Of a DNA stretch of 49,823 nucleotides, positions 1 to 44,300 are shown piece by piece (position 1 is the stretch's first letter; every line of letters starts with the position of its first letter). The notes below the pieces were generated by a model, which did not search any database, had not been told where the DNA came from, and saw nothing but the letters and a program-made list of their open reading frames with translations. Position numbers and translations under genes: made by a program. Source of the stretch: Nemertoderma westbladi (lineage: Eukaryota; Animalia; Xenacoelomorpha); assembly GCA_032718475.1 (NCBI GenBank), contig JAUCBJ010004971.1, positions 1-49,823 of the forward strand. The letters are read 5' to 3'.

Positions 1-45
1 TACTCCTTTGAAGTTTGCCGACACTTGTATTTTAGACAGTAAGGA

Positions 46-13204: not shown

Positions 13205-16200
13205 TCAAGGGTGATTCTTCCAGCAGGCATTCTCCCACTGCCCACTTATCCACTTATCCAGTCCACTTATCCTTCGCCCCACTCTCCTTGTCAATTCCAA
13301 CTCTCTAGGAATTGATTCTCCCTCCTTCACCACCCTAAAATCGGGTCTTTCGGTCGCCTTCTTGATTTCCTCATGGTCCCCTGGCAGCAGAGTGCCACCC
13401 TTCATCTTGTCGTCACCTGGTGTTAGAATGAAAAAAAATCGAAAGAATAGATAAAATAGAATGGATAATAGTAATCCTATCCCTTTCCACCCTGTCTTCT
13501 TATTTGACCTCCCCCTTTTTGGTATGCCTCTCAACTGGACCGGCGTCTCCTCCAGACACTTCTCTGGACATCTCGCCGTCCACTCTTCTCCATCCTCATA
13601 CCGATACTTGTCAGGAACATCCTTGTTCCATCCCATTGTCTCTAAGTCTTCTGCGTCTAATCCATTCTCCTCCGCCCACTCTCTTGCTGTTGCTTCCCCT
13701 CCTAATTCATCTACCGACGGTATTTCTCTGGAACTATCCTCTATCCTTTCACCACACTCCACTATGCATGGTTCCAGATCCATACCCAACTCCTTGTATC
13801 CTTCCCCGGGCCACTTCTCACATGGGACCTCCCCATCACCCGTCTCTGGTATCTCCTCTACGTCCTCAACAGTGCCTGACAGCATGCATCCTGATGTCTC
13901 GGACACACCAAACGGTATCCTCGTCTTAATTGGGCCAGTGAGCGTCCATCCAAATTGCGTGAGAATGGCCATCGGGTCTCGCTCCCTGTCATTGCTGAAT
14001 ATGGTCTGAAGTTTCTCGTGGGCTGTCGGGCAGTCCATGCCGACTGAGAGATACCTTCGGGATGTCCAACTCGGGCACGGAGAAATCGATGTTGTCTAGG
14101 TACCGGTATTGCTCTATCTCGATATTCGTCGGTCGCCTGGCGTTGATATTAATCGATTCTATTATTTGGATGGGTTCGATGGTAGCCCCATAGCCGCAAC
14201 CTGGTGCTATTGCTGATATCTCGCACCGTCCCGTTCTCATCTCCAGGACCTCGTCCTTGTTCGAGATAGTAGTTACCGCCATCTTACTCGGCCTCGTCTG
14301 CAACCCTATCTCTTCGGCCACCCAATTCTCCATTAACGTGAATGCTTCTCCACTATCGACCAACATTAGTGTTATGGCCGATAGCCCATCCTTTCCTGTT
14401 ATTCTCACTGGTACTACCCCGAGTTGTACTGTCCTCTTCCTCTTTGCTTCCATCGTGCTTGTAGCCATAGTTTGGCCTCCAGTCTCGTCATATTCTATCG
14501 GTGTTTCTCTACACTCTCCAAATCTGTGTCTTTCTACCACGCATTGATGACATAGTCCATTTGTATCCGCATAGGCTACCCGATCTTGTTTAGGCAACAC
14601 CTGCCAATGCTTACAACTCATGGTCTTAGGGGTTCCATCTCTATGCAATTGACATTTGTTTCCTGGATTGTAGCGTTCCTTGTATAGCCTTTCACGTATC
14701 GCGCCTAGGTTCATATCTACCAGTTTAGTGTTTTGGTTATTTGGACTCGGCCTACTGGGTGTGTTGGGATTATATTTGTTCGTGTTGTTATTTTGTCTCT
14801 GTCCCTGCCACGGTGTGTCCCTACTCCCAGCTATCTGTGGACTTGTAGTCCCCTGCGTGGCCGCATGTGGTAGTGACTGTCTCACTCTCGGGAATGCATC
14901 TGCCGGATTATGTTCTGGTTTCGGCCTGTTGTATTCAGTCCTCAGCGCCCTCCCCAGACTATCCTCCTTGGGTCCGTGATTAGTTCCGCCTCATAATTAA
15001 GGAAGTTCGACATCTCCTCTAGCCCTGGCTCCGCACCTTTCTTCTCCCGAGTGGAGAAGGCGATCTTTCTCCACTTGTTTCTTAGCCAGATCGGCAGTGC
15101 CTGCGCTATTGTGGTGATGTTATTCGATGCGTTGAGTTCGTAAGGCGCATCCAAGGTCTTTAGCACAATCAGCGCCTTTTCGACTTTATTCGCGAAAGTC
15201 CTGATGCTGACAGGGTTATCATGTAGTCCACCTGATGTTATTTCCCTCAAGGTTTGCCGGATGATCTTAGCAGGGTGTCCGAATTCCCTGTCTAGGGCCC
15301 GCCATGTAGTCGTGAATCCACCCTCGATACCTTGGTACTGCCTTACGATGTCGTATGCTGGCCCCCCTGTGTAAACTTGTAAGTATTTTAGGCACTCCGC
15401 CTGCATCAGATTCTTTTTTAATATCTCGTTACTTTACATACGCCGGAATTGCAGATATTCCTCTGGTTTGCTTCCATCGAATTTGAACGGCTCCACTGGT
15501 GGCAGCTCGATCCTGGTCTTAAGCGCATCGATGAGTGTCGCCATTCCCTTCGCCTGTACTTCTAGTGCGCTCGATGGATGCTGTACAGATTCTCCTGCTG
15601 CTGGGTGCGGTTCGCCCGTCGGGCCTGTCGACCTCTTTTGCGTCGGATATATCATTGGGGGTAACGGTCCCCTCCATATCTCTGTATCACACGATCTATT
15701 TTGGTCCGAGGGGTTTGGTGTTTTTGTTCTTGGTTGAGTATATTGCTGATATTGTAATGGGGGAATGTCACCCTGCCCCCTCCCCACCAGTATTATATCT
15801 GGTATTGATGTTACCATGTTAGGGCCTATACATCTATCGGCAATAGCTCCCCCCACCCCTGGGTATATGTTATATCCTTGCATATTATAGTCATACTGGT
15901 GTGCAGGTACCGGTATAGGCCTATCCACTCCTTGCCTATCTACCGGTATGTATGCCGCGACTTCCGGATCTAATCCCGTTGTCCTAGCTACCCTATCGCC
16001 TACACTATCTCTTCCAGCATGGCCTATAGTATGTGCAGTAAGGCCTACAGTATGTCCTGCAGTCTGCCTGTGTCATTCCGGACCGAAGTTTAATCTCTTT
16101 GAATATTCCAAGAAGTCCTCCCCACAACTACAGTACTCTCTATCGGCAGCTATGTCCCATCGGGAAGTTTCTCTTTGATCCCCTCTCCTGTCCTCGTCCT

Positions 16201-18548
16201 CGTACCGGTACATCCTGTACCCTTCTCCCGGTGTGTGGTATATCTCACCAGGCTGCGTCTCTCCGGGGCGATGGCAATCTCCCGGAGTTCGACCCCACTG
16301 ATTCTCTAACTCCATCTCTGCTACCGACGGTTCACTGTCCGTCCTTCCTCTCCGGTTGCTCGTAGCAACGCTTCTTCTATTCTCTTCGCTTCTTCTCTCT
16401 TCAGTGTAGCGATCCCCTTCATGAGATCTTGCTTCGACCTCCCGGATAAACTCCACTGTTCTTCTTCCGTCTTCCGACTGGGCTCGACGTCTTGTCGCTT
16501 GCCCGCTCACGGCGCCAACCTCTCTCTCTCTACCCGGTTGGATGCTCCTGGGGATATTCGCAATCCTATGTCTCAATCGACTATTCTCTGTCATCAGGTG
16601 CCGCGGTTCACCTAACTCGCCGCGCGCATTGTCCGCCGACACTTGCGGGACATTCTCTGCCCCCCCCCCTCTCGCCACTAATCTCTTGTGGTGGGGTGCC
16701 TGTAGCCCCCCCCCCCCCCACCTCTTACTTCGCTACCTCCCGCTTCACCTCTACGCCCCTCTATAGTCGAAGCAGTATCTCTACCCTGGCTGGGTCTACT
16801 CACACCCGCCTCTCCCTGTGCGACTGCGTGGCCTTGCAGGCTCCTGTTGGGTTGACTCACCCCCACTACTCCCTGCGTAACTATGTGGCCTTGCAGGCTC
16901 TCGCTGGCCGGACCACCTGTCCCCCCTACGTTTGTATTAATTACACAGTTATTGATAATATTATTTTGATTAATTTCCTCGGGATTATTATCTAACGCAA
17001 CATTGTTATCTTACTTATTTAAATTATTTTGTTCAGAATTAGGGCTATTATTTGGAATATTTTGCACATTTAAATTAGAATTATTATTTGGATTATTTTG
17101 CACATTTAAATTAGTATTATTATTTGGATTATTTTGCACATTTAAATTAGTATTATTTGGATTATTTTGCACCTTTAAATCAGAATTATTATTACTGGGT
17201 AAAATATTATTTCCTGCAACAAAGGTTTGATTAGGGTTGTCTACTACGGTACTATTAATATTAATTCCTTCTAACGTATTATTATTACCCCCCCCCCCCT
17301 GCCCGTACGGTTATACCAGTCCTGGGTCTGTTGTCCGGTACCTGTAAGTGGGGTATTAACAAACGTTTCCATTACTTCTGGCTCCTCGTAAATACTACCC
17401 AAACCAGCCTCACTCTCCGATAATCCCAACTTTGCCAGTTCTAACTGGCGCTTTTTCTTCGCCTGGTATTGCATGAGCCCCCTCAACCGGGTATGCATAT
17501 CATCCCGCATACGCTTTGCCGCTCTCTCTCTCTCCCTATCCTCCCTAACGCTTTGGTCGGCTAACTCTGCCTCTCTCGCAACCCTCTTCTCTTCGCTCTC
17601 TCTAAAGTTTCTCGCTACCCTCTCAGCCCTCCCTTTGCTCTCTCTCGCTAACTCTCTCTCCCTCTCCAATAATGCAGTTCCCTCATCTAATTGTCTTTCC
17701 AACTCCTTTTGATCCAGCGCCACAATGTCTAGTTTACATGCCAGATCTATCTCTAACACCCTTCTTGCTTTTGCAGAGGATGTAGCAGACTTATCGGTGG
17801 TGACGGACTCCTGTCGCCTCTCTGTCCTACTAACTTTCCCCCGCTTTCTGGGGTTCTTGCTAACCAATGACACCGAATCCTCGGGGTTAACCTCGGGTTC
17901 GGCGTCGTGCAGGTCCGTCCATCCCACTAACTTAATTCCCCTTGCATCCACTAAGTAAGGCCCTACGTACACTACGTCTGGCTCCATTACCTTGGACCGC
18001 CACAATTCAAACAGTTCCGTGGCGACCCCCCTTGCTCTCTCATCCGCCAGTACTCCCTGTCCAAAACGGACTACATAGCGAAAATGTTTATTTGACTCAC
18101 CTAGACTCTGGTATAGTTTAGGCTGGTCTACCTTTCTCCCCTCCTTGGCCTCTTTGAGTAGTTTCTTGGTGGTGTTGTAGGCCTGTCGTAGCCGATCACT
18201 TGTCCCGACGTCCTCTTCGTCGACTCTACCTTCTCTCCTCGTCCGGCATCGAATCGGCGGCCCCACCGTCGCCGTTCCGGTGGGCCGTCCGTCGCCCTCG
18301 GCCTGTGGCTAGCCGGCAACTTCGGTACTCCGACCGCTGTCGTCGTTGTGCGTCGACCCATCTCCTTCTCTCCTCCGCAGCTGACGGCCGCCCTTCACTT
18401 GGGCTACCGGATCATCCCTCATTGGCGAATCCGGCGTGGCAGGCTGATACCATCTCGTCACGGCCTCTCGGATCGTTTGGTTGGTGTCGTCCGGGGTCCG
18501 CGGCGGCATTCTCTCTCCCTCTGATAATCGGGGCTCCTGATCGCTCAT
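13205..18548 (-). pseudogene. BEL/Pao gag-protease, multiply frameshifted
   Basis: ELPPVEPFKFDG, LKYLQVYTGGPA...FGHP, zinc knuckle LCHQC...H...C, protease VVPVRI...LVDSGE, AILTQFGWTLTGP. Confidence 0.85.
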
Positions 18549-18596
18549 CTTTAAATTTCTAGGCAGTCACAGTTTGTCAGTTGGTCAGTTTATGAC

Positions 18597-18915
18597 TGTG
18601 ACGGGATCATAGATCCTGACCGGTATAGATATGTACGCGTCACCGTTTCACTGAAGTAGCTGTGCTATAGTGGTTTTGGCCAAAGGCCGTCAGGGAAATA
18701 ATCGAGTTTGTGTTTCTCAATATTAATCTTCTGAAATGATAATAGCACAGAACTATGTATGTAATGAATATCACGATACAAAATAGCAGCGGAAAATACA
18801 CAGATATTAATTGGTTATGTTGGTAGCGGTGATGGTCATAAACTATGACCAGTCTGCAACTCTGTGATTAGTGAACTGACCGGTAAATCAGTAATACAGA
18901 ATAATATATGATTGA
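18597..18915 (-). repeat. BEL-A 5' LTR (recognisable part; U3 not found)
   Basis: Matches 4656-4974 and lies just upstream of the gag ATG at 18548. Confidence 0.85.
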
Positions 18916-19201
18916 CCCACGGAGGAGGAGGGAGGAGAAACTAACTCTGTTTCGAATTTAATGAAATCTCGTTAAGATTTGTAGAATTTTTTTTTTTTTT
19001 GGGGGGGGGGGGGTCGGTTGGCCATGTACTTGAATACGACACTATATTCCTGGACATGGTGTGTTGTTTACACGATTATCAGTAATTCTATACTGTAATC
19101 ATATTATGTTGATTTCCATAGATATAATCAGATATAATTCAGTTGTGTTCATACCCAAGTTATAATTCCATATAATTTTCAAAGATTCATTTATTTTGCA
19201 G

Positions 19202-20013
19202 GTCTTAAATGTTTGTTGCTCGCTCACATAATATTGTTGTACAAACATGTGCCATGCACTGTGGCCGCGACCAAACAGACATTGTTCTTGATCCTTCGAA
19301 CAGCATTCTCAACTATTTCATGGGTGTGCTTTTTAATTTCAATTCAGTTCAGTCCAATAGCCGACGCGTACACTCTATACAACACAGCGCCAGCATTCAC
19401 GATAATTCTCGCTTTTATTGTGTTGAAAGAAAAACCTGGTTTTTTCGGAATTATAATTTTATTTCTAACTTTAATTGGTGTTATGCTGGTTTCTCGCCCA
19501 GAGTTTATATTCGGGGCTACAAATCAACCAACTGATTACCCATACCACGGCTACGCTATGATATTCGCTGTTACAGCGGCTGCTCTTAACTCCATGGCCC
19601 ATATTATAACAAGTAAAATCTCCACAGTATTCCATTACTCTGTATTTACTTTCTATTTGTCTCTGTTTACTGCCGTTATCGGATTGATTGCTATTACATC
19701 GTCACCATTCGAAACGCCAATTGGCTGTTCGCTGTTCGTACGTTTAACCCCAATTGGAACTGCCATCACAGATTTTATAGGTGTAATTTTCTATGTTATG
19801 GCTTTTCGCCGGGAAAAAGCTGGTCTCATATGTATTGTTCTGAGTCTGGATGTGGTGCTCGCTTTTCTGTATCAGATAATATTTTTTCACAGCGAAGTCA
19901 TTGGTTACACCTCGATACTTGGTGCCAGTTGTATATTTTTTTGCACTGTGTCGATTTCGGTTAAAAAGTACATTGACACCATGATTCAAGCGAAAAAATT
20001 AGCTTCTATTTAG
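19202..20013 (+). CDS. Terminal coding exon of SLC35G-like (EamA/DMT) transporter
   Basis: ttattttgcag| acceptor; multi-TM ORF with LILRT, PIADA..L.NTAP.FT.ILAFIVLKEK, GVMLVSRPEFIFG, A.RREKAG, DVVLAFLYQIIFF, SILGA motifs typical of SLC35G1-like proteins. Confidence 0.88.
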
Positions 20014-20133
20014 GTAAAACTAACTAATGTTTGGCTAATAGCCATAAGTGTAGAATTCTATACCGAACACAGATTTGGTAGGATATATCGTTGCTTTTAT
20101 GATATCTCTCTAAACGGGATAGAGATTGGGATT

Positions 20134-20540
20134 GATGTTAGGACAATTGCAACCTGGACAATTGCGACCCGGACAATTGCACCCCATCAATTTTTTCTAA
20201 AATGGGTCACAATTGACCGGTTCGCAATTGCCCGGGTCGCAATTGTCCAGGTCACAATTGTCCTAACATCAATCCCAAACTCTATCCCGTTTAGAGAGAT
20301 TGTCCGGATCCAGATAAAAAGATGTAATGTATATCATTGATAAATATCATTGTATCATTGTATATCATTGATAAATATCATTGTATCATTGTATATCATT
20401 GATAAATATCATTGTATATCATTGACAATTGCGACCCGGACAATTGCGACCCATAATTTTTATTTAAAAACATGGGTCGCAATTGACCGGGTCGCAATTA
20501 TCCGAGTCACAATTGTCCGAGTCGCAATTGTCCGGACTCC
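20134..20540. mobile_element. Foldback MITE with repeated ggacaattgcgaccc TIR motifs and 9-bp TSD (Mutator-like)
   Basis: Flanks attgggatt (20125-20133) and actggggtt (20541-20549); the paralogous empty site has a single actgggatt at 36494-36502. Internal (atcattgtat)n tract. Confidence 0.7.
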
Positions 20541-24610: not shown

Positions 24611-24831
24611 TGCATAAAAAATAAAAATTCTATTATTCAATTAATGCCGATATTGTATTGTTATTGCCTACACAGTGTTCTATACAGTGCAACAATAATT
24701 AGGCCTATATAGTTATAACCTGAACAATGCTTAATAAATACTGAAATATATTCTGCACACTCTGAATGTTTCCATCTTTCGGTGGCCCCTTATTCTTGTT
24801 TTATAATGCTGTTGTGGGAAAAGACCCCACA
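24611..24831 (+). repeat. Gypsy 5' LTR (first ~14 bp missing)
   Basis: Nearly identical to 33285-33505; ends gaccccaca. Confidence 0.9.
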
Positions 24832-24834
24832 AAT

Positions 24835-24848
24835 TGGTGACCCGGACG
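24835..24848 (+). promoter_or_regulatory. Primer binding site, tRNA-Trp type
   Basis: TGGTGACCCGGACG 3 nt after the LTR, one mismatch to the tRNA-Trp 3' complement TGGTGACCCCGACG. Confidence 0.85.
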
Positions 24849-24996
24849 AGCAGACTACCAGGCAACTGGACGTCTTCCAACTACTGAACTACCGGTACAA
24901 CTACTAGATTCGATAATATACTTCCTTTGATCCGTTACCGTACCTGGTACCGGTACTGCAGTATACTGCTGTAGTATATTCGAAGCGTACTTTAAT

Positions 24997-26235
24997 ATGT
25001 CGCTCGATCAACATCGAAAAGCCGAATTGTTACAAACTCTCGACAAACTTACCTCACATATTCCGGACTACAAAATGCCAAATACCAAGAAAGACATTAT
25101 CGAAGAATTACAGAAAGAGAACCCATACGCCGTTCCAGTTATTTTAAGTCAGCTAACTCAAGAAGACTCTATCGATACCGGTACCAAAAGAAAAACAGAC
25201 GACAAAACGGACGTACAGAGAACGCGACTTCCTGATTTTTTTCCGAAGGATGCAAGAATCTGGTTTCAGCAAGTTGAAGCTATTATAGAAGGGCAGAAAG
25301 AACACTCTAAAAAGGCGAATCTTCTCACAGCAATTCCGATGGATACAATCCTCGAATCAGGGGTTAAAGTCAATGATACCTTTGATACCATAAAAACTAA
25401 TATTGTATCGCACTTGGCAGACAGCGATGAAAAGCGATTACGCAAACTTTTAGAAGAACAAGAACTTGGTGATCGGAAGCCATCTGCAGCCCATCGGCAG
25501 ATGCAACGCATTGCAGCAGGAAATGGCAACGATCAAATTATTCGATTGCGGTTCCTAGAAATCATGCCTCCAATAGTAAGTACTGTACTGAGTACACTTC
25601 CAGAACTGTCTTTGGAGAAACTCGCCCAACTTGCAGATAAAATGATTGAACAACAGAGTTCTAATTCTCACAACTCCTCTACTCCATCTTCATCTCCAAT
25701 TTCCCAAGTTGCCGATAACAGTTATCGCCAACAAACCTCGAAAATAAAATTACTTCCACAAAACCTACTAATGGAATCCCAAAGAGCGCTCACAGAGCAG
25801 GTTGTTGAAATAAGTGCGCAACTTCGAGCTATGTCCAACTCAAATGCGCGGGACTCTCGTTCGAGGAATCGGGATCCGAGCTCATCAAGAAGCCGGACAC
25901 CATATCGCACTCGCTCGCAATCGCGTGGACGGGAATAAAACCCCCAAGGATCCTGGTGCTACTACCACTTCCGTTTTGGCCATGAAGCTTCTAACTGTCA
26001 GCCGCCATGTGATTACAGGCTTGGTAACAACAATTCGCGCTCAGTTCCAAAACCATCAAATCCACATATGGGTGATTCCAAATCCAATCATAATACTACT
26101 AATAATGTTTGCTCAGTTCAAGTTAAAGCTGACCCTGTAGGACAGTTTTTAGTTGATTCGGGCAGCGATTTTTCAATTATACCCCAGTCATATAGTAACC
26201 TTTTGGTTAACTTTTCACAACAGTCACATACTAGA
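24997..26235 (+). pseudogene. Gypsy gag and protease N-half (in-frame TAA at 25936-25938)
   Basis: RLPDFFPKDARIWFQQVEA, LGDRKPS; after the stop, WCYYHFRFGHEASNCQPPC and then FLVDSGSDFSIIP in the same frame. Confidence 0.88.
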
Positions 26236-26487
26236 TTTATTATTGATAGTAACAATGTGTTGGCAAGCTGTATTTTTCGAGGTATTTGTTATTATACATT
26301 TATTATTAGGAAGGGATATAGGGGTCTTAACCTCGAGTGATAAATTTATTTTACCGAAAATAACTTATCTTTTATTGGCGCAATTGTAGGACTAATCCCA
26401 TCACATGCGTACTTTTTAACCGGGTATTGTACAAATTTGGGAATCGCGTATTTTTTTTCTTGAAATTAATATCTCATATCTCTCCAA

Positions 26488-26530
26488 ACCACATACGCGT
26501 TTCGACCTTACTGGGTCTCATCAGCGTGGT
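26488..26530 (-). ncRNA. Minimal type I hammerhead ribozyme copy 1
   Basis: ACCACG-CUGAUGA-GACC-CAGUAA-GGUC-GAAAC-GC-GUA-UGUGGU (G:U pair in helix I). Confidence 0.85.
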
Positions 26531-26900
26531 GTCGGATTAGAACCTGGGACCTCGAGGTGGAAGCCGAGACTACAACCACTAGGCCACAGGGTCTTGAGAT
26601 ATGGAGTATTAATTTCAAAGCCAGCTGCCATTTTATTAGCCCCTGATTTTTATTATTGATAGTAACAGTGTGTTGGCAAGCTGTATTTTTCGAGGTATTT
26701 GTTATTATACATTTATTTTTAGGAAGGGATATAGGGGTCTTAACCTCGAGTGATAAATTTATTTTACCGAAAATAACTTATCTTTTATTGGCGCAATTGT
26801 AGGACTAATCCCATCACATGCGTACTTTTTAACCGGGTATTGTACAAATTTGGGAATCGCGTATTTTTTTTCTTGAAATTAATATCTCATATCTCTCCAA

Positions 26901-26943
26901 ACCACGTACGCGTTTCGACCTTACTGGGTCTCATCAGCGTGGT
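26901..26943 (-). ncRNA. Minimal type I hammerhead ribozyme copy 2
   Basis: ACCACG-CUGAUGA-GACC-CAGUAA-GGUC-GAAAC-GC-GUA-CGUGGU. Confidence 0.88.
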
Positions 26944-27320
26944 GTAGGATTAGAACCTGGGACCTCGAGGTGGAAGCCGAGAGAACAACCACTAGGCCAC
27001 AGGGTCTTGAGATATGGAGTATTAATTACAAAGCCAGCTGCCATTTTATTAGCCCCTGATTTTTATTATTGATAGTAACAATGTGTTGGCAAGCTGTATT
27101 TTTCGAGGTATTTGTTATTATACATTTATTATTAGGAAGGGATATAGGGGTCTTAACCTCGAGTGATAAATTTATTTTACCGAAAATAACTTATCTTTTA
27201 TTGGCGCAATTGTAGGACTAATCCCATCACATGCGTACTTTTTAACCGGGTATTGTACAAATTTGGGAATCGTGTATTTTTATTTTTTTTTCTTGAAATT
27301 AATATCTCATATCTCTCCAA

Positions 27321-27363
27321 ACCACGTACGCGTTTCGACCTTACTGGGTCTCATCAGCGTGGT
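27321..27363 (-). ncRNA. Minimal type I hammerhead ribozyme copy 3
   Basis: Same core and helices as copy 2. Confidence 0.88.
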
Positions 27364-27640
27364 GTCAGATTAGAACCTGGGACCTCGAGGTGGAAGCCGA
27401 GACTACAACCACTAGGCCACAGGTTCTTGAGATATGGAGTATTAATTTCAAAGCTAGCTGCCATTTTGTTAGCCCCTGATTTTTATCACTCGAGGTTAAG
27501 ACCCCTATATCCCTTCCTAATATGTATAATAACAAATACCTCGAAAAATACAGCTTGCCAACACATTGTTACTATCAATAATAAAAATCAGGGGCTAATA
27601 AAATGGCAGCTGGCTTTGAAATTAATACTCCATATCTCAA

Positions 27641-27703
27641 GACCCTGTGGCCTAGTGGTTGTAGTCTCGGCTTCCACCTCGAGGTCCCAGGTTCTAATCC
27701 GAC
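27641..27703 (+). promoter_or_regulatory. tRNA-derived Pol III internal promoter (A box TGGCCTAGTGG, B box GGTTCTAATCC) directly 5' of the hammerhead
   Basis: gaccctgTGGCCTAGTGGttgtagtctcggcttccacctcgaggtcccaGGTTCTAATCC with tRNA-like spacing; present in all four units. Confidence 0.7.
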
Positions 27704-27746
27704 ACCATGCTGATGAGACCCAGTAAGGTCGAAACGCGTACGTGGT
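27704..27746 (+). ncRNA. Minimal type I hammerhead ribozyme copy 4 (inverted unit)
   Basis: accatg ctgatga gacc cagtaa ggtc gaaac gc gta cgtggt. Confidence 0.88.
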
Positions 27747-27944
27747 TTGGAGAGATATGAGATATTAATTTCAAGAAAAAAAATACGCGATTCCCAAATT
27801 TGTACAATACCCGGTTAAAAAGTACGCATGTGATGGGATTAGTCCTACAATTGCGCCAATAAAAGATAAGTTATTTTTGGTAAAATAAATTTATCACTCG
27901 AGGTTAAGACCCCTATATCCCTTCCTAATAATAAACATACTAGA

Positions 27945-29739
27945 TTGACTGCTGCGAATTCATCCAATATTAGAACATACGGACGTGGCGAATTAATATT
28001 TACTATTCCTACTTTAGGAAATAAGCAATTTAATTGGAATTTTATTGTGGCAGACGTGAGCCAGCCTATACTAGGTTTGGATTTTTTGAAATATTTTGAT
28101 ATAAATATTGATTGTAAAAACAGTACTATAATCATGAAACCATCAGTAAGCAGTGAAACGAATCACATACATTGTGATAATGAAGAAATATTTACAGAGT
28201 GTGAAACGGATAATTCCACTTTTACTAATATTTTTTGCGTAAAAAAATATTTCTTGATTTTTGTTGTATTGTTTATGAATTTAACATATTTTCTCGCCAA
28301 CAACAGAGCAATGTTGTCAAGTATTTTATTGACTTTTGGAGTGGGTATGTGTTTTTCAAGCATACTTGGTATAACCAGTGACATGTGTGCTGTAGGGAAT
28401 ACTGCAACTTATAAACTCAATTTAATCAGTTTAGCTCAAGTATTGTAAATAATTTTAATTCAACATCGAAAATGAGACATTCACTTAGTGAACACAAATC
28501 GGTGTTTACAGAAATATCAGCTGATGACATAATAAAACACCCCATCAAACATCACATAATAACCAGTGGTCCACCGTGTAACACTAAACCAAGACGTATG
28601 TATGGCGATCGTCTAAATGCTGCTATTAAATAATTTGATTTTCTACTGAATCGGAATGTAGTAGAACGCCGAGAATCACCCTGGTCATCAGCATTGCACA
28701 CAGTTGTAAAACCCGATAACTCTATAAGGCCCTGTGGTGATTACAGGAGATTGAATAAGCAAACTTTGCCTGACACATATCCTATGCCCAATATCTCAGA
28801 CATAACTAACAATTTTCGTGATTGTATAATTTTTACAAAAATTGACTTAACCAAGGCATTTCACCAAATTCCAATGGCTGAAGAAGATGTCCCTAAGACA
28901 TCTATAACAACACCTTTTGGAATGTTCTGTTACCTAAAAATGCCATTTGGACTTAGAAACGCAGCACAAACCTTTCAAAGATTAATGGACACTACATTAT
29001 ATGGGCTAGAATGTGCTGTAGGTTATATGGATGATATTTTGGTTGGAAGTAAGAGTGAAGAGCAGCATTACCATGATGTTAAACTGGTTCTAGAACGTTT
29101 AGAAAAATTTGGTCTTAAAGCCAAACTGTCAAAATGCATATTTTTTACACAAGAAGTTAATTTTCTCGGCTATATTGTATCAAAGACAGGTGTTCGCCCA
29201 AATCCATCAAAAATTGAAGCCATCAGAGTATTTCATGAACCGACATCAATAAAATCATTAAAACGGTTCATTGAGATGTGTGGTTTTTACCACAGGTTTA
29301 TTCCACATTTCTCTGAGATTTCTGCACCCCTTACCGATCTCACCAGAGATAAAAAAAAGAACCAAGATTTAGTTTTAACGCCAGAAGGAAATTGCGCCTT
29401 TGTAAAACTGAAACAGGCTCTTGCAAACGCAGTAACCTTATCATTTCCAAAAAGAGATACCCCAATAACAATCACAACTGAGATGCATCCAACGTTGCTC
29501 TTGGTGCTGTTATTCACCAGGAAGTAGATGGTAAATTAGAGCCACTAGCTTTTTATTCAAAAAAATTAACACCGAATGAGTGCAGAAAATCTACCTTCGA
29601 TAGAGAACTATTGGCTATTTACTCTGGGTTAAAACATCACGAATGGCTGCTCGGGCAAAATCTAACCATACTAACTGATCATAAACCTCTAACTCGATGT
29701 CTAGAAATGAAAAATCCGACTCCCCAGCAATCTCGCTGG
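27945..29739 (+). pseudogene. Gypsy protease C-half, RT and RNase H (stops and frameshifts)
   Basis: PILGLDFL, RPCGDYRRLN, MPFGLRNAAQTFQR, YMDDILV, LTDHKPL. Confidence 0.92.
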
Positions 29740-29744
29740 ACGGT

Positions 29745-31610
29745 CAGGGCCCTAAACCGATTAGGTTCTCTGTTCGCAGAACACCGAACACTATTCCGGC
29801 CACGGAACTAGTCCAGCAGAATGCCTTTATAGAATCCTGGGATTTGGGGGACGAGAGGATCTCAGCATCTAAGCGAAAACGAACAATAGGATGTTCCTAG
29901 ACCCCCCCCCAAAATTTATCCAGACAACTTTTCGCCATACATAATGTGTTAAAAAAGGCTCAAGGCTTGCTCCAATCGAAAAACTTAACATTACAAAAAG
30001 ATTCAGCGACCCCACATTAGTCATGATTCCCGTTAAAAGATTTAAAAAAAAGTGAATTTTTCCCGGTCAAAACGTAAGATCATGATCGCGCAAAGATCGG
30101 ACTTCGTAAAATCGTAACTAAGCATTTTGGATATAAACAATTACTGTAGGAAACGTTCAGAATACGCCCTGAGTCGATTGAAAAAAAAATTGGCTCGATC
30201 GGACAACCGGTTCTCGAGATCTGATACCTGATCATTAAAGATCATATTTTTCGGTTTTTTCCAATTTTCTCGAAAACTTTGTTTGAGACCCCCGATTTTT
30301 TTTTTACGAATCGACTTCTATTAAGAAGGGGCAACTTTTGGGCATTTCGAAATTTTCAAAAAGCGATTTGATCAGGCCATGATCAGGAAAGATCATGTTT
30401 TCGGTTTTATTTCGAAGACCAAGTCCTGTGAGTTCACCGTATGAAAAAACTTAACATTACAAAAAGATTCCTCACCCTCGAATTAGGGGGGGTAGCCAAA
30501 ATTTGACCATAAAAAAGTTCAATTCTAGGGGGTCAAAAGATCATGATCGCAAAATGATCAGTTTTTTCGTAATTACTTCTGAGCATTTTGGGGCAAAACT
30601 TTCAAACTAAAAAACATTCACTGGAGTGTTCTAAGTAGATTAAAAAAAATTTCGACTCAATAGGCCTACCGGTACCGGAGATATGGTCGTCCAAAGTCTG
30701 CTTCCGGTAATTCGAAAATATTTCGAAAACCCTTGATCGAATTTTTTCCTTGAAAATATGTGAATGTACAGTTAGTGGACCCGCATCTAACGATATATCA
30801 CAATCCATATTTCGGATGACAGGTACCGGTGAAATCAGACTTTACCGAAAAAAATTCAAATTTTTGCTACTCATGTCTGACTATCTCGAAAACTATAATA
30901 GGTATGGAAATACTTTCACTGCAAGAAATGTTCGCCTATCCAATGCGCTTCTATCTCTGTGCTCGGATTTTGCATAGTTTCAAAACCTACAACTTAACCC
31001 CCCCAGCGGAGGGAACGGAGTGACCGGAGCGCCAGTACTATCTTTCATTATTATGAAGTAATAAGGGCGGTGGGTGGGGTAGGTGGTGAACACTATTTAT
31101 AGGGTGGAGGGAGGGTCTAGTATATTACTTTAGGATATTTGATTTCTTTGCAATATAGTTTAGCTGCCTCAGTCTTATTTGTAATATGTTATACATTATA
31201 CCAAATTATATCAAGTTTTAACATACTGCATTGTTTACCTGTAGGAGAAATATACAATGTCGGGCTCATAATATATTTATAAATAGATTTAGTATAATTT
31301 ACATTGTATAACAGAGTTAATTGATACTATTACGGTATTATACTAAAGACGCCGCTTTGATATATCTGATCAAATGGCAATTTCTTGTATATTATCTATT
31401 TCACTATCTTGGGTATATCATTCAATTTCTAAAACTATAATAATAAACATTTACTTCACTTCTTGTTTACTCGCATGGATATATTGATATAAAACACTTC
31501 AGTATAATATCTTATAGGGCCAAACGCAGATTAATCGGAATAATATGTTTAATTATTATTACAATTGGCACATTGAAGTAAGTAGTACATGAGTTTGATA
31601 AAATAATGAA
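29745..31610. mobile_element. Non-coding insertion(s) interrupting Gypsy RNase H, probably DNA-transposon-derived
   Basis: Pol breaks at QQSRW (29739) and resumes at NIVADALSR (31620). The insert begins CAGGGCC and has a duplicated aaaaacttaacattacaaaaagattc; no matching TIR was found. Confidence 0.45.
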
Positions 31611-31619
31611 TGATAATAA

Positions 31620-32853
31620 AATATTGTGGCCGACGCCTTATCCAGACCATTAGCATTGATTACATTTGATAATATGGTTCAATTAGCCAATTAACAATTG
31701 GAGGATCAACATTTGCAGCAATTTTTCAGAACAACCTCATTGCCATTAAAAAAAAGTTTATGTAAATGAAGAAAAGTTCGTGTATTTTGATGACTCTACA
31801 TCGGTCCTCAGATCATATCTTCCCTCTAACTTGCGAAGAAAAGTATTCAATAATTTTCATTCATTGGCCCATGCTGGACCCAAAGAAACACTTAAATTAA
31901 TAGCAGCTCGTAATACATGGCCTGGCATGAATAAAGAAGTCAAACAATGGGCGAAGCAATGTCTAGCCTGCCAGAAATGTAAAATAACTGTCCATGTTAA
32001 GACACCTATTGGTTCAATCCCAACATGTTCCAGATTGGATTCTGTACATTTGGATATAGTGGGACCCCTTCCTCCTTCATGTGGGCACAAATATCTATTG
32101 ACTATTATAGATAGATTCACAAGATGGCCAGAAGTTGTCCCATTGCAGAATATTTCCACTGATGCAATTGCGAATGGTTTTATGTACTCTTGGATTAGCC
32201 GTTTTGGGGTACCTTATAAAATTATAACCGACAGAGGTTCTCAATTTGAATCTAGACTGTTTGGCATTCTCATTAAAAAACTAGGAATAGAGCGTTCTAG
32301 AACAACGTCTTATCACCCTTCATGTAATGGTATGATAGAGAGATGGCACAGGCAATTAAAAGCTTCGCTCCGTGCAAAATGTGTAAATTACAATTGGTAT
32401 CACGAGCTGCCATTAGTTCTACTTGGTCTACGATCTGCCATGGGAACTCATGGTTACTCCCCCGCTCAACTGTTATACGGCACAGAGTTACGTCTTCCAG
32501 GACAATTTCTAGAACCCGAAAACGTTGAATTGTTACCTGACTATGTTTCGAAATTATACAAAAGAGTAGACTCCTTTCAACCCCCAACAAGACTTCATAA
32601 GTCTAAGTCTTATGTTCCTAAAGATTTACACACTGCAACACATGTCTGGGTAAAGGATTCTAGAAAGCGTGGTTCCCTCACACCCTGTTACACTGGTCCA
32701 TATGAAGTTGTTGCTATGGATGAAAAAACTGTTACAATCCGAATCCGTGGTAAGAAAGAAATTGTCTCACTCGATCGCGTCAAACCAACAATAATGGCGA
32801 ATGAAGTATTGGCCTCGTCGCAGCAAAAACGAGTCAGGTTCAAATTAAACTGA
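31620..32853 (+). pseudogene. Gypsy integrase
   Basis: HHCC (HSLAH...CLAC), HLDIVGPLP, IITDRGSQF, NGMIERWHRQLK, GPY module. Confidence 0.92.
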
Positions 32854-33270
32854 TTTCTGCATAAAAGACCAAAATCTATGGTGTAAATTTGATAATAAAT
32901 ATAACAATAAAATGATTATAACAAAATCATTGATATATAATGAGAAATTCAATAAATATTTATCGCAACAAATATCAAATATGAAAAAGTTCAACTTAAA
33001 CAAAAAAATTAATAATTAACAGTTAAAAAAATAATTACTGTTTAGTAAAATAAGATACAAGATTAAATAGTAGTAAAGATTATGTATATTATTAGTAATA
33101 TATCAGTAAGATATTTTGGAATTTTGAGTGCTAATTTACGCTAAAGTGAAAATTTTTTAAATTGATACTAATTGAAAGGCTTATTGGTGTTATTGTAATG
33201 TAAGTTGTTTATTTTCATTATAAGAAAGATTTTTTAATTTATGCGCTCCGCTTAAAATGAAAGGAAGTTA

Positions 33271-33505
33271 TATAGGGATCTAAGTGCATAAAAAATAAAA
33301 ATTATATTATTCAATTAATGCCGATATTGTATTGTTATTGCCTACACAGTGTTCTATACAGTGCAACAATAATTAGGCCTATATAGTTATAACCTGAACA
33401 ATGCTTAATAAATACTGAAATATATTCTGCACACTCTGAATGTTTCCATCTTTCGGTGGCCCCTTATTCTTGTTTTATAATGCTGTTGTGGGAAAAGACC
33501 CCACA
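33271..33505 (+). repeat. Gypsy 3' LTR
   Basis: Purine tract gaaaggaagtta, then tataggg (TGT start apparently mutated) ... ccccaca. Confidence 0.88.
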
Positions 33506-34130
33506 ATGTCCACCGGGTCACTCAGGTCGGACCATTCCCGGACGTCAAGAATTTCATCAAGATCTAGAATATTGGAAACTGATCGCATTCTGAGCGATAA
33601 GATGGGAATCCTACAATGCACTCAAGAACAAGAACAAACTAGAAAACTCAAAGAATATGAGGCCTGAAGGTACGCTGAAATGTTGGAAAGCAAAAATAAA
33701 AAATTAAAACTTCAAGCGGAACAACAAAAGTCCGAAACAAGACGTAAAACAAAAGATCAAAGGTTAGAAATAAATAAACAAAAACTAGAGATGGAACATC
33801 AAACAGAACAAAAATATTGTAAGTGGTACTCCAAGCGGAACGAAAAAGGCGATTTCCAACAGGAGGAACAACTAAGAATGGCGGAACAACAAAGAATAGA
33901 CTGGGCGCTCCAATTACATCATAAAGAAAGGGAACTTGACTGTAGCGCTCAACTCTTTATGTGAAACACAAGTCGCTACAGAGTAAAGAATTAGTATGGA
34001 GGAAGTTGAAGTTAAAAGGAGTGAAGGAGAAGATGTTCCAGAACCCACTATTCCGAACATTACCCTAATAGACACTAGAAGCTTCCTAGACCATCTTCAA
34101 TACGAACCTATACTACACTTATAGATGAAT
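33506..34130 (+). pseudogene. Degenerate Ser/Arg plus coiled-coil ORF (gag N-terminus-like)
   Basis: SRTSRISSRS followed by E/Q/K-rich heptads broken by stops and frameshifts. Confidence 0.35.
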
Positions 34131-37928: not shown

Positions 37929-38523
37929 TGTGAGTGGATTCAATTCCGCCTCACCAACCCCCATAAATTTGGAAAGGGCGCCTTTAAGCAATATTGGGAA
38001 GTACGAGGTTGATTACCAATCAACCTCGTATCACCCCCAATAACGGGCACAATACACAGCCCCAAAGAGCCACCAATAGAGGTTAGAGGTCAAGCTACCT
38101 CAAGGAGAGAGAGTAACAGCAGCGGGGGGGAAGCACTCCCACAGAGGTGAAGGCGAGAAGTAGGTTATCAACCAATGGGGGGACAGGAAAGGCATCCGCT
38201 GAGTAGTAGGGCCAAGGTAATGTAGGGTGATTAGATATATATTACCGGTCGGTGCCGATAACATTTAGTTTTACTCAGTAGTTTGCTCAGTCACTTAGGG
38301 CAGAACGGTGACACTTTAAGACCATCACTGCCGTCACCAATCCATACACATTGTCATTACCGGTCAACCGTGCTATCTCAGTATCTGCTATCACCTATAT
38401 TATATATATATTACCGTTCAAGTTTATTAACAACACTGGAACAACAGACTCTCTTTTTCCATCACACGGTGCGGCTGACGCGTACATAAACCAAACTGGT
38501 CGGGATCCTCCAATCCCGTCACA
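37929..38523 (+). repeat. Complete LTR of a BEL-A relative (BEL-C)
   Basis: TGTGAGTGG...CCCGTCACA; the 5' half aligns to 9619-9290 (rc) and the 3' end to 18597-18660 (rc). Confidence 0.8.
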
Positions 38524-38587
38524 GTCTTAAAGTATAAGAACTGCCAAATTGTGACTGCCAGCCACCAGAGAAGAACAGAGTTAAGAG

Positions 38588-39997
38588 ATGAGTCAAGAAG
38601 GAGAGACGACACCGCCGCAGACACCGGACGACGACCTAACGATCCGCGAGGCCACGACGCGACGGTATCAACCCACAACGCCGGGTTCGTCGACGATAGA
38701 CGATCCGGCAATCCAAGCGGAGGGGGGCCGTCTACAACGAGGGATGAGCGAGTGGAGAGAAGGGAGAGACGAGTCGACGCACGACGGTGCACGAGGTACC
38801 GATGTCGCCGAGGCCGAGGGCGATGGACGGCCCACCGGAACGGCAATGGTGGGGCCGCCGGTATGACGCCGACCACGGAGAGAAAGAGGGGACGTCGGCG
38901 ACGAGGACGTCAGAGTCAGCGACCGGCTCCGACGAGTCTACAATGCGACGAGGAGGCAACTGAAGGAAGCCAAAGAAGGAGCAAAACTAGATCAGGTGAA
39001 ACTAGAACAGCGACTAGGTGAGTCGAACAAACATTTTGACTATCTAGTCCGCTTTGGGCAAGGAGAGTTGGCAGGTGAGAGAGCGAGAAAGACCGCCACC
39101 GAACTGTTCGAACTGTGGCAATCTAGGGGTATAGAGCCTGGTGTAGTGTACATAGGGCCATACTTAGTGGATGCCAGGGGAGTTAAGTTAGTGGGTTGGG
39201 CGGGACCGCACGAGGGCGAATCCGAGGTTGACCCCGAGGATTCGGTCTCGTCGGTCAACGAAAACCCCGGAGAGCGGGGGAAAGTTAGCAGGACAGAGGG
39301 GCGACTGGATTCCGTCGCGATCGATAAGTCTGCTACATCCTCCGCGAAAGTAAGAAGGGTGTTAGAAATCGATCTGGCGTGTCAGCGTAAAGAGCGTGAG
39401 GAGAGAAGGGCGAGCGAGCGTAAAGAGCGCGAGGCGAGGTGGCTTGAGAGGGTTGCGAGAGAGACAGAGTTGGCCGAGCAAAGTCTACGAGAGGATAGAG
39501 AGAGAAAAACGTTTGTTAATACCCCACTTACAGGGACCGGACGACAGACCCAAGACTGGTGTAACCGTACGGGCGGGGGGGGGGGGGGGGGGGGTAATAA
39601 TAATACCTTAGAGAACATTAATATTAATAGTACCGTAGTAGATAACCCTAATCAAACTTTCATTGCAGGAAATAATATTTTGCCCGACAGTAGTAATTTA
39701 AATCCGAACGATTCTAATATAAATGTACAAGGTAGTCCGAATAATTTAAATAATAATTTAAATTTAAATACACAAAATAATTTAAATAATAATCCCGTTT
39801 CAAATTCAAATAATTCTAATAATTTGGATAATTTGGAAGATAGTGTTGGTAGTGGCGCTATTAATGTGAACGTGTCGGACGCGGGTGGCCCGGCAAATGA
39901 GAGCATGGTGGGCCACGAAGTCGGTGGGCGGGGAGTGGCGGGGGTGAGAAACCCCAATGAGAGCCTGGTAGGCCACGCAGTTAGTGCGCAGGGAGAT
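38588..39997 (+). pseudogene. BEL-C gag N-terminal fragment, truncated
   Basis: LGESNKHF.Y.VRFGQG, GPYLVDARG.KLVGW, PEDSVS and TFVNTPLTGTG.QTQDW are shared with 17271-18266. Confidence 0.85.
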
Positions 39998-41340: not shown

Positions 41341-44300
41341 TTGGCGAATATGACATATTTATACACTATTTGATTTTTAATCAATAAATAATCATACATA
41401 TTTATATTAAACACTCGAATAAAATAAAAACTTTGTGAGAATGGGACACGGCGAATCTACCCATGTTAATTTTATACCAGGTGGGATAAATGTTAGCCTT
41501 CTAAATCATTAATTACCGATAGAAGAACAGAAATAATTCGATAAATTTCGCCCGAAAATCAAGAAAATCGCCCTCTAGCGGCAGACGGGCGAACTTCAGA
41601 CGGCTCTGAGTATTACGTTGCAACGAGTTAGGGCGAGACCTTTCTAACGAGCTATAGCAAGCGAGATTTCATCGAGATGGGTTCGATTGTATAGCCGATG
41701 ACAAACACACAGACAGACAGACAGACAGACAGACAATCGATATTTATATATATTAGACTAGAAAGCCTGTGGCCCTTCGGGCCACAGCTTTCTAGTGCAT
41801 GTGCAGATTATATATGAATATGTGTGGGAGATTGGAGAACTGCATACGGAACAGACACCATCATTAAATAAAACACCACCCCCATAAGAGATAACTGTCA
41901 AGTTTCAACTTTAGGCAGATTGTAAATAACAAAATTTCCAGAAAATGATCACTTTCAGATCCACCCTCTACCTGCGGACTGGTGAAATGCAGACGACGCT
42001 GCAGTTTGGTAAAGATGGGGTTTATGGTGAAGTAAAATGCCTGCCTTTCAAGTTTCAGCTTAAACAGATTGTAAATAACAAAATTGGTGTAGATGTTCAC
42101 ATTCAGACATTTCACCCTCTAGCGGTAGACTGAAGAACTGTAGACGACTCTGGGACTCCGTAAAGATACAGAATATGCTGTAGTAGATTCCTGCCAAGTT
42201 CCAGCTCAAAGGGATTAAAAAGAACCAATTGGGATGAGGTGTTCACTAACAGACAATTCGCCCTCTAGCGGCAGATAGGGGAACTGTATACAACTCTGCG
42301 ACTCAGTAAATGTAGAGCCTATGCTGTAGTAGATGCCTACCAAGTTTCAGTCTAAACCGTTTGTAAATAACAAAGTTGGAGAAGATGTTAACTTTCAGAC
42401 ATTTCACCCTCTAGCGGTAGACCGGGGAAGTGTATAGGACTCTGCAACTCCGTAAAGATAGAGCCTATGATGTAGTAGATACCAACCAAGTTTCAGCTCA
42501 AAATGATTAAAAAGAACCAAATGGGATGAGGTTTTCACTATCAGACAATTCGCCCTCTTGCGGCTGACTGTGGAACTGTAGACAACTCTACTACTCCGCA
42601 AAGATATAGCCTATGCTATAGTAGATGCCTACCAAGTTTCAGTCTAAAAGGATTGTAAATAACAAAGTTGGAGAAGATGTTAACTTTCATACATTTCGCC
42701 CTCTAGCGGCAGACGCGGGTACTGTAGACAACTCTGCGCGACTCAGTAAAGATATAGCCTATGCTGTAGTAGATGCCTACCAAGTTCAGTCTAAATGGAT
42801 TATAAATAACAAAGTTGGAGAAGATGTTAACTTTCAGACATTTCGCCCTCTAGCGGTAGACCGGGGAATTGTAGACGACTCTGCTACTCAGTAAAGATAC
42901 AGTCTATGCTGTAGTAGATGCCTACCAAGTTTCAGTCTAAACGGATTGTAAATAACAAAGTTGGAGAAGATGTTAACTCTCAGACATTTAGCCCTCTAAC
43001 GGTAGACTGGGGAACTGTAGACAACCCAGTGACTCCGGAAATAATACAGCCTATGCTGCAGTATATAGCTACCAAGTTTCAGCTCAAAAGCATTAAAAAC
43101 AACCCAATAAGATCAGGTTTTCACTATCGGACAATTCGCCCTCTAGCGGCAGACGGGGGAACTTCAGACGGCTCTGAGTATTACGTTGCAACGACTTAGG
43201 GCGAGACCTATCTAACGAGCTATAGTAAGCGAGATTTCATCGAGATTAGATGTATACTATTAGATAAAATAATAATACAGTAAGTATAGGCCTACAGAAA
43301 TAATTATTTTCCTTTTAATATTCATAACAGTAAAACAAAAATGTTATAAACCTCTCCTTCCATGCAGCCAATGATTGAAAAAGCAGAATTACTCTGAGCA
43401 ATTAGCAATAGACAACCCAAACCCCACCCCAATCAACACTCCAGCCTGCTTGCTCCTTATCTGTGCCCAGCCAGCTAGCTGCGAGTTCAATAATTACCTT
43501 AACGTTGCTATGATACAGAAAACAATCCTTCCCTATATTCACTACAGCACTAAGAATAGGCCAATTCGATCGTGCTTGGCGAATATGACATATTTATACA
43601 CTATTTGGTTTTTAATCAATAAATAATCATACATATTTATATTAAACACTCGAATAAAATAAAAACTTTGTGAGAATGGGACACGGCGAATCTACCCATG
43701 TTAATTTTATACCAGATGGGATAAATGTTAGCCCTCTAAATCATTAATTACCGATAGAAGAACCGAAATAATTCGATAAATTTCGCCCGAAAATCACGAA
43801 AATCGCCCTCTAGCGGCAGACGGGTGAACTTCAGACGACTCTGAGTATTACGTTGCAACGAGTTAGAGCGAGACCTTTCTAACGAGCTATAGCAAGCGAG
43901 ATTTCATCGAGATGGGTTCGATTGTATAGCTGATGACAAACAGACAGACAGACAGACAGACAATCGATATTTATATATATTAGACTAGAAAGCCTGTGGC
44001 CCTTCGGGCCACAGCTTTCTAGTGCACATGCAGATGATATATGAATATGTGTGGGAGATTTGATAACTGCATACGGAACAGACACCATCATTAAATAAAA
44101 CACCACCCCCATAAGAGATAACTGTCAAGTTTCAACTTTAGGCAGATTGTAAATAACAAAATTTCCAGAAAATGATCACTTTCAGATCCACCCTCTACCT
44201 GCGGACTGGTGAAATGCAGACGGCGCTGCAGTTTGGTAAAGATGGGGTTTATGGTGAAGTAAAATGCCTGCCTTTCAAGTTTCAGCTTAAACAGATTGTA

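Follow-up and report, generated by a model that had tools for sequence, protein, structure and literature searches.

The array and its insertion site

The stretch analysed here (the window) is the whole of contig JAUCBJ010004971.1 of Nemertoderma westbladi (Xenacoelomorpha; assembly GCA_032718475.1), 49,823 nucleotides in length. It contains an array of four near-identical units (413, 413 and 420 bp, plus an arm of 448 bp), each of which joins a tRNA-like head to a hammerhead ribozyme, set within a Gypsy-type long terminal repeat (LTR) retrotransposon. Tandem Repeats Finder reports a 413-bp period with 3.0 copies at 26236–27486, and self-BLAST adds a fourth, inverted copy at 27482–27935 that is 97–98% identical, with no further piece of the unit outside the array in the window. 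Units 1–3 carry the ribozyme sense on the minus strand and unit 4 on the plus strand, head to head with the others, and the insert as a whole measures 1,697 bp between the two copies of a perfect 12-bp target duplication. The original prediction, made from the letters of this stretch, had recognised the four units and missed the inversion of the fourth, the target duplication, the Gypsy host and the two-ended geometry described below. The features referred to in the text are as follows.

24611..33506 (+): Gypsy-type LTR retrotransposon, host of the array and outside its family; 222-bp repeats at 24611 and 33285, 1 base different
26226..26237 (+): left copy of the target-site duplication, 12 bp, ACATACTAGATT, ending in ATT; joint of the empty site in runs X1 and X3
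26238..27486 (-): long arm of exactly three units, head to tail; start and end both in the motif AATAATAAA
26488..26593 (-): head and hammerhead of unit 1 (A box 26576–26586, B box 26534–26544, hammerhead 26488–26530)
26901..27006 (-): head and hammerhead of unit 2 (A box 26989–26999, B box 26947–26957, hammerhead 26901–26943)
27321..27426 (-): head and hammerhead of unit 3 (A box 27409–27419, B box 27367–27377, hammerhead 27321–27363)
27482..27486 (no strand): head-to-head inversion junction, 5-nt microhomology
27487..27934 (+): short arm, inverted, 1.08 units; ends in a second AATAATAAA, 63 nt upstream of the first in the register of the unit
27522..27585 (+): tail-like segment between the two end motifs, with a 19-codon frame from ATG; also at 27125, 26712 and 26299 (-)
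27615..27638 (+): upstream arm of an inverted repeat, pairing with 27752–27775 and extending helix I; also at 27429–27452, 27009–27032 and 26596–26619 (-)
27641..27700 (+): tRNA-like head of unit 4 (A box 27648–27658, Gly(UCC)-like anticodon arm 27666–27683, B box 27690–27700)
27704..27746 (+): hammerhead of unit 4 (type I), with its cut predicted 3' of 27740
27752..27775 (+): downstream arm of the inverted repeat, in the predicted fold
27874..27878 (+): T run (five T here), the sole run of at least four T per unit on the ribozyme strand; possible leaky terminator for RNA polymerase III (Pol III) in a predicted hairpin
27935..27946 (+): right copy of the target-site duplication, 12 bp

The array is a single insertion of an abundant non-coding element. 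In two of the four public sequencing runs compared (X1 and X3), contigs join 26225 to 27935, skipping 1709 letters with 12 letters shared, and so display the empty site; compared with the flanks in the window, these contigs have 13 differences in 526 letters and 3 in 566, and they may represent either a paralogous Gypsy copy or an allele. The units have a GC content of 37–39% and differ from each other at 3–11 of 352–414 bases in pairwise comparison, with 14 private substitutions (five of them CpG transitions) and 2 indels in all. In the lead of the short arm, 5 nt are deleted at 27521, precisely within the inner end motif, where the family is variable in length. As had been claimed, the array holds no coding open reading frame (ORF): the two frames scanned within it (178 and 89 aa) matched no Pfam family, a 33-residue frame ending in the tail-like segment found 0 proteins at E 0.001 (a weak query), and the insert shows no evident pair of LTRs.

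Local satellite expansion or an error of assembly is a very improbable source of this arrangement. Tandem and inverted repeats do trouble assemblers, and the filled site is spanned by none of the contigs among the matches listed in the four runs; set against this are the perfect duplication together with the empty site, the private substitutions and indels of the units, and junctions that fall at positions defined by a motif.

A hammerhead of the predicted dimer-dependent kind

The four hammerhead cores are identical between CUGAUGA and GUA (minus-strand starts at 26524, 26937 and 27357; plus-strand start at 27710), which confirms the earlier claim of a full core in each unit of approximately 413–420 bp, and the window contains no further core whose helix II is paired. 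Cuts are predicted 3' of 26494, 26907 and 27327 (-) and of 27740 (+). Helix II comprises 4 bp (GACC/GGUC) with a 6-nt loop and no bulge, helix I comprises 6 bp (ACCACG/CGUGGU), and the palindrome ACGCGU precedes GUA. A core with a paired helix II arose by chance in only 1 of 20,000 dinucleotide shuffles of a unit. The Rfam scan that had been proposed as a check gave no match at the gathering score, but below it the model Hammerhead_HH9 was found on all four copies (24–26 bits against a gathering score of 52, E 0.0009–0.0036). Rfam matches to miRNA families were rejected, being produced by the inversion hairpin and lying far under their cut-offs.

Two changes in helix I had been taken as G:U-compatible variation; the changes do exist, but each is a C>T transition at a CpG and thus points to decay and provides no evidence of selection. 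Across the family the core is nearly invariant by depth, with one multicopy variant carrying three core changes (record 20 of X5, also seen at 27712 in X1 and X3). Scans of viral, metagenome and bacterial collections recovered no homologue (19 viral loci, 0 in a second viral scan, 4 metagenome loci and 2 chance matches in bacteria). Unrelated hammerhead-like motifs were observed on viral and metagenome contigs, two of each (L007 and L016, 1501–1549; L020, 1492–1540; L023, 3001–3046).

From its palindromic helix III, the hammerhead is predicted to be of the newt/axolotl kind and to cleave only as a dimer. In the folding model, isolated hammerheads cofold as a swapped dimer with a 6-bp helix III, at -38.7 kcal/mol compared to 2 x -15.2 kcal/mol for the separate molecules. 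Slow, dimer-dependent cleavage, as modelled, fits what the cited papers report, namely that the axolotl Amex1 and newt hammerhead motifs require dimers (PMC7229834) and that activity is low in many such motifs (PMC4209133).

The tRNA-like head

An A box and a B box lie 5' of every core (4/4). The A box reads TGGCCTAGTGG and the B box begins 42 nt further on, start to start, which is the spacing found in tRNA genes. The original prediction of boxes before each core therefore stands as regards their presence, but the B box is canonical in none of the four local copies, reading GGTTCTAATCC in three of them and bearing a further change in unit 3. The majority letter at 27695 is G in all four runs (in X1, 328,597 of a depth of 328,729 over 58 contigs), which gives the perfect B box GGTTCGAATCC. 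A pair of A and B boxes appeared by chance in 12 of 20,000 dinucleotide shuffles, using consensus box motifs with position 57 left free.

ARAGORN at default settings finds no tRNA, and neither does Rfam on 131 bases; calls of the head in all four units under relaxed ARAGORN settings (-ps78 and below) were dropped as evidence, as 185 of 500 shuffles were also called at -ps76. In a blastn search of the head against 50,697 phage records the top match is an annotated tRNA-Gly(TCC), with 82.9% identity over 40 nt at a weak E value of 2, and 16 of the 17 phage matches are this one tRNA-Gly(TCC) in related phages. The anticodon arm of the head equals that of the phage tRNA but for one inserted T; at this weak E value the isotype is not certain. 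Against plasmids, 18 short matches were obtained, all of them in protein genes. The acceptor and T stems of the cloverleaf have been lost; that the boxes were kept while these stems were lost is the pattern of selection on a DNA promoter. We read the head as a tRNA-derived type 2 promoter, from whose boxes transcription by Pol III is predicted. That the local copies carry a weaker B box counts against a strict need for the canonical box. Runs of four T are not significantly scarce on the ribozyme strand (1, against a mean of 1.2 in shuffles, P 0.64).

Folding of the unit RNA

The monomer is predicted to be highly self-paired, on the ribozyme strand only. Circular monomers taken from cut to cut have z scores of -3.1 and -2.6 on the ribozyme strand, compared to -1.6 and -0.5 on the opposite strand; 0 and 1 of 60 shuffles were as stable, and the linear form has a z score of -2.97. 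The two main helices of the inverted repeat have predicted pair probabilities of 0.94–0.96, and with helix I they would form a rod of approximately 32 pairs from which the head emerges as a side branch. The 3' half of the B box is itself predicted to form the distal part of helix I (27698–27702 with 27747–27751, probability 0.96). There are seven sites at which all or most units of the window depart from the letter held by the majority of the family. That letter strengthens predicted pairing at three of these (27643, 27890 and 27897), breaks a pair at 27695, which is the B-box site, and is unpaired at the other three.

These predictions bear on the possibility that the unit is a retrozyme mobilised by Penelope in which a captured tRNA head survives as a relic for the sake of RNA structure, with the RNA made by Pol II or by read-through. 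The local units were mobilised despite sharing a non-canonical B box, half of which is predicted to lie in helix I; to form the conserved inverted repeat an RNA would have to include letters 5' of the predicted Pol III start; a transcript stopping at the T run would be without both of the priming sites proposed below; and hammerhead transcripts of newt satellite 2 have been attributed to Pol II (PMC6765202). However, the family keeps a perfect A box and a majority-perfect B box at tRNA spacing, and retains G at 27695 where U pairs better, and we attach only a small weight to a head without promoter function.

Abundance and dispersal of the family

Contigs of the four runs were mapped on the unit, taken as 474 bp, giving 2594 contigs in X1, 1006 in X3, 70 in X5 and 1 in X4, with partial fits of 304, 283, 29 and 1, respectively. 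Depth summed over the array is 1.0e4–2.8e5, compared to approximately 90–130 on the flanks in X1, although depth does not translate into copy number. The stretch or part of it is present in 7 of the 10 runs listed, covering five studies and two organism labels plus one metagenome in which its share is small; none of the listed runs is registered as RNA, although X4 may be. The family is thus abundant and dispersed, and the claim of a protein-free mobile unit moved in trans is borne out by these many copies together with the target duplication and the empty site.

Contig ends recur at the outer boundary of the local insert. At the outer end motif, loose ends with unrelated flanks were found among the matches listed in 9 contigs of X1 (at 27583), 10 of X3 (at 27582) and 1 of X5, with agreement of 0.44–0.45 in X1 and X3. 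At the inner end (27927) there are 14 contigs with agreement of 0.56, mixed with read-through into the next unit. Unit-to-unit joins also occur elsewhere in the family, as joints from 27927 back to 27522–27531 in X1 and X5 and as a 441-nt contig in X4 whose loose ends are letters of the neighbouring unit. Three X5 contigs begin to match in the register of 27545–27547 after unrelated sequence, 38 nt upstream of the outer end, a second boundary that is unexplained. Run X5 also has two multicopy records, one of 1831 nt at depth 401 and one of 600 nt at depth 512, which share parts of the unit and continue downstream; the longer has a mutated hammerhead core and the shorter keeps an ATG at the start of the tail.

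All four units of the window differ from the family majority at 27695, 27783, 27795, 27807, 27890 and 27897 (units 1–3 by alignment), and thus come from one variant template. Unit 3 alone carries the majority letter at 27643. Taken with the comparison of the pairwise differences between units to those of the host LTRs (1 of 222 bases; P about 0.11), this makes us lean towards a mixed linear multimer as the template in preference to one circle, but the evidence is not decisive.

The insertion scar and the mobilising enzyme

The insert terminates in AATAATAAA on either side, sharing 2 and 1 nt with the duplication. In the register of the unit the two copies of this motif are separated by 63 nt, and each falls in a predicted loop. 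The outer copy bounds the long arm at both of its ends, and the inner copy closes the short arm. From either flank inward, the letters of the insert run antisense to the ribozyme strand, and thus both ends look like starts of complementary DNA (cDNA); on one linear RNA the gap between the arms equals the segment between the motifs. The inversion, the target duplication and this two-ended geometry are the best evidence available on the mobilising enzyme.

Long interspersed elements (LINEs) are known for twin priming with inversion, microhomology and 10–15-bp duplications, and genes for a non-LTR reverse transcriptase (RT) are present in the window (43–3159). It could thus be supposed that a LINE-type enzyme acted by twin priming on an ordinary tRNA-derived short interspersed element (SINE) containing a hammerhead by chance. 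We consider this improbable, since a tail of poly(A) or simple repeats is absent, the head lies inside the unit, approximately 57 nt from its boundary, both ends fall at one internal motif (the outer of them recurrently across copies), and the multimers are exact.

The marks reported for Penelope elements are tandem and inverted head-to-head copies with a one-sided tail (PMC8557442), duplications of 8–10 bp, and mobilisation in trans by means of their pseudo-LTRs (pLTRs) alone (PMC3846280). With the purified PAc protein of the anole, both strands are cut at ATT and extended from two internal starts that flank the tail, on RNA that is mostly uncleaved (PMC11167929). The match of our locus to Penelope is good in layout and imperfect in the length of the tail. 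We favour, with a probability of about 60%, the reading that the array is an insertion of a non-LTR retrozyme, in which a 413-nt unit joins an A/B-box head to a type I hammerhead and was likely transcribed by Pol III and likely copied by a Penelope-type RT-endonuclease.

The insertion could have come about in three steps. First, Pol III would start near 27641 in a tandem donor and read through the single T run of each unit, generating multimers. Second, with only one stable helix III pair under the palindromic loop (ACGCGU), cleavage would be slow and confined to dimers; two neighbouring cuts would release a monomer of 413 nt that carries the promoter at the 3' end and has a closed, highly paired fold, and this monomer could be circularised. 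Third, a Penelope-type protein would nick AT-rich DNA on both strands, 12 bp apart, and prime cDNA at two AAUAAUAAA sites separated by 63 nt. Synthesis of the first cDNA would have run through three units and halted at the outer site; the second would have started from the inner site, extended for 448 nt and been joined to the first at the 5-nt microhomology. On a linear RNA of at least 4.2 units the skipped stretch would be the segment between the two start sites, as a protein bound over the tail would protect.

Several observations weigh against this reading, in addition to the want of a filled-site contig noted above. No GIY-YIG or Penelope match was found in the 68 frames of the window that were scanned (29 of the 40 frames of at least 150 aa, and 39 frames of 85–149 aa beyond position 17000), so that the linkage to a Penelope RT-GIY-YIG ORF envisaged in the original prediction is not seen within the window. 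The tail is 63 nt where 30–40 would be expected, and ATT is present only at the left nick. The starts used by PAc are non-homologous to the cut DNA, compared to an overlap of 1–2 nt here, though this is weak either way. As all four local units have a non-canonical B box, either a weakened promoter or read-through would have supplied their source RNA. In full two-unit transcripts the predicted probability of helix III forming between units was 0.01, 0.01 and 0.17 in the three tested, so that cleavage is predicted to be slow, with multimers left. In Xenopus, only one of nine predicted retrozyme dimers was cleaved in vitro (bioRxiv 10.64898/2026.07.22.740005).

It is also conceivable that the unit represents a terminal repeat, made up of pLTR and tail, of a coding Penelope-like element with a tRNA-type promoter, and that the locus is a multimer of bare repeats. 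An ATG directly follows the inner end motif and a 19-codon frame fills the tail in all four copies; this supports a pLTR, because the pLTR and tail of Pen2a_Av hold the first 22 codons of that element (PMC3846280). The 600-nt X5 contig matches 126 nt here with 15 other letters and 1 gap, has an ATG in the same frame among 15 letters at the joint, and leaves the unit approximately 10 nt before the outer end to continue for 444 further letters. Such a pattern in a diverged contig would be as expected of a coding parent and keeps the pLTR explanation alive. Conversely, three exact head-to-tail bare units are hard to derive from one pLTR, the unit-to-unit joins elsewhere in X1, X5 and X4 speak against it, the frame from the hammerhead ATG closes after 15 codons, unlike that of PAc, and the 33-residue frame found no protein. 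We regard it as unlikely.

A more far-reaching version of the retrozyme reading, which we put forward tentatively and consider rather doubtful, is that capture of tRNA promoters by Penelope terminal repeats is a recurrent route to Penelope-dependent Pol III SINEs, followed here independently of Sm-alpha. Of its parent the family would have retained nothing but the protein-binding tail (codons 1–19 of the parental ORF), and the insertion would record twin priming in vivo on uncleaved RNA of at least four units. The longer multicopy X5 contig may represent the parent of the family.

Comparison with known elements

The closest design is that of Schistosoma's SINE-like retroposons Sm-alpha and Sj-alpha, in which a tRNA-derived, Pol III-type promoter lies directly 5' of a type I hammerhead (PMC6765202, PMC2770079, PMC8490949). 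They likewise have units (of approximately 335 bp) that are often in tandem, reach high copy number and have the promoter at the 3' end of the monomer after the cut. As these elements already couple the two modules in tandem (PMC6765202, PMC2770079), the novelty earlier attached to the hybrid design was overstated. Their differences from our unit lie in the head, which is Gly(UCC)-like here (at a weak E value) compared to Sm-alpha-like copies that score as tRNA-Gln(TTG), in the length of the unit (413 nt here), and in helix III, which is weaker here and of the dimer type. In the portions of PMC6765202, PMC2770079 and PMC8490949 drawn upon, no mobilising enzyme is named. The element is built like Sm-alpha, yet by the type of its head it would fall outside the Sm-alpha family proper.

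The unit shows every testable mark of the metazoan non-LTR retrozymes, which have tandem units of 150–450 bp, a GC content under 50% and a canonical type I hammerhead in each unit, here 4/4 (PMC7229834; bioRxiv 10.64898/2026.07.22.740005). They also have target duplications of more than 4 bp (12 bp here), are dispersed, encode no protein, form a highly paired monomer (as predicted here) and are proposed to depend on Penelope; it has been argued that they are non-autonomous derivatives of Penelope (bioRxiv 10.64898/2026.07.22.740005). With the axolotl Amex1 hammerhead our unit shares a helix III of one pair capped by a palindromic tetraloop. An internal promoter of tRNA type is not described for retrozymes in the available text of PMC7229834, where 'Pol III' and 'SINE' do not occur, and a two-ended inverted scar is likewise not reported for them in the texts cited; on the other hand circles and cleavage have been demonstrated for retrozymes, whereas in our element both are putative.

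EN+ Penelope-like elements (Poseidon PAc, PMC11167929; Adineta Pen2a/Pen3a, PMC3846280; overview in PMC8557442) resemble the locus in their tandem and inverted head-to-head copies and target duplication, and in ATT at one nick, a palindromic helix III (PMC4209133 for the hammerheads) and a short frame starting in the terminal region; their two start sites and one-sided tail have putative counterparts here. They differ in encoding an RT-GIY-YIG ORF, of which there is none in the insert or the 68 window frames, in a tail of 30–40 nt compared to 63, in a promoter of TATA/Inr type compared to tRNA type, and in a minimal hammerhead with a helix II of 7–8 bp and a bulged base, compared to the canonical size here (helix I 6 bp, helix II 4 bp, 6-nt loop).

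With classical SINEs the element shares A and B boxes, a decayed cloverleaf, the absence of coding capacity and dispersed copies. Such LINE-mobilised tRNA SINEs, which are non-coding and dispersed and retain both boxes in a decayed cloverleaf, have the head at the 5' end and an A-rich or simple-repeat tail, and are monomeric; our element differs in its internal head, the lack of an A-tail, the multimeric inverted insert and the ribozyme. The design of a promoter followed by a hammerhead is therefore already known, and what we have here is an element of that kind whose scar is unusually readable. The family itself may be undescribed: in the open-licence literature, to which the search was confined (Repbase, Dfam, subscription papers and supplements lying outside it), there was no tRNA-headed hammerhead element outside schistosomes and no Penelope-dependent Pol III SINE.

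The host element and the remainder of the window

The Gypsy host has Pfam matches to RT, RNase H, integrase and DUF7041, and the array was inserted into what, from its motifs, we take to be the protease region. The host has several stops in its frames and is broken at other places, and no target duplication is evident at its matched ends.

Two related non-LTR RT frames, presumably CRE-like from their motifs, lie at 43–3159 (+) and 6579–9095 (-), with N-terminal parts expanded by unrelated in-frame tandem repeats on a scale of 30, 21 and 15 codons; they have 242 relatives at approximately 36–42% identity, one of them named, from a sponge. Protein searches with frames of the window gave either no hit or hits of 36–52% identity from sponge, schistosomes, spiders and a butterfly, with a maximum of about 52% for the RTs. 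A decayed LTR element at 13205–16732 (-), with matches to DUF1759 and an aspartyl protease, is presumably BEL/Pao-like. The frame at 19138–20013 (+) encodes a 291-aa EamA-type transporter with no relative at E 0.001 among 4600 candidates. Inverted copies of an element at 17080–18642 and 38476–39996 are 74–77% identical and contain frames of 345 and 377 aa without a Pfam family, palindromic arrays of a 15-bp unit at 20104–20535 are MITE-like, and from 41341 to 49823 arrays of a 146-bp unit are nested in a higher-order repeat of approximately 2.2 kb with 91–96% identity.

Significance

The literature cited leaves open the manner in which Penelope-like elements generate their tandem and inverted insertions, as well as the enzyme responsible for mobilising animal retrozymes and SINEs of the Sm-alpha type. 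The locus supplies exact nick positions, two start sites, a skipped segment and a compact 413-nt template, and from these a direct prediction for an in vitro Penelope assay. Judged from its sequence, it also suggests that retrozymes can bear their own Pol III promoter outside the schistosomes.

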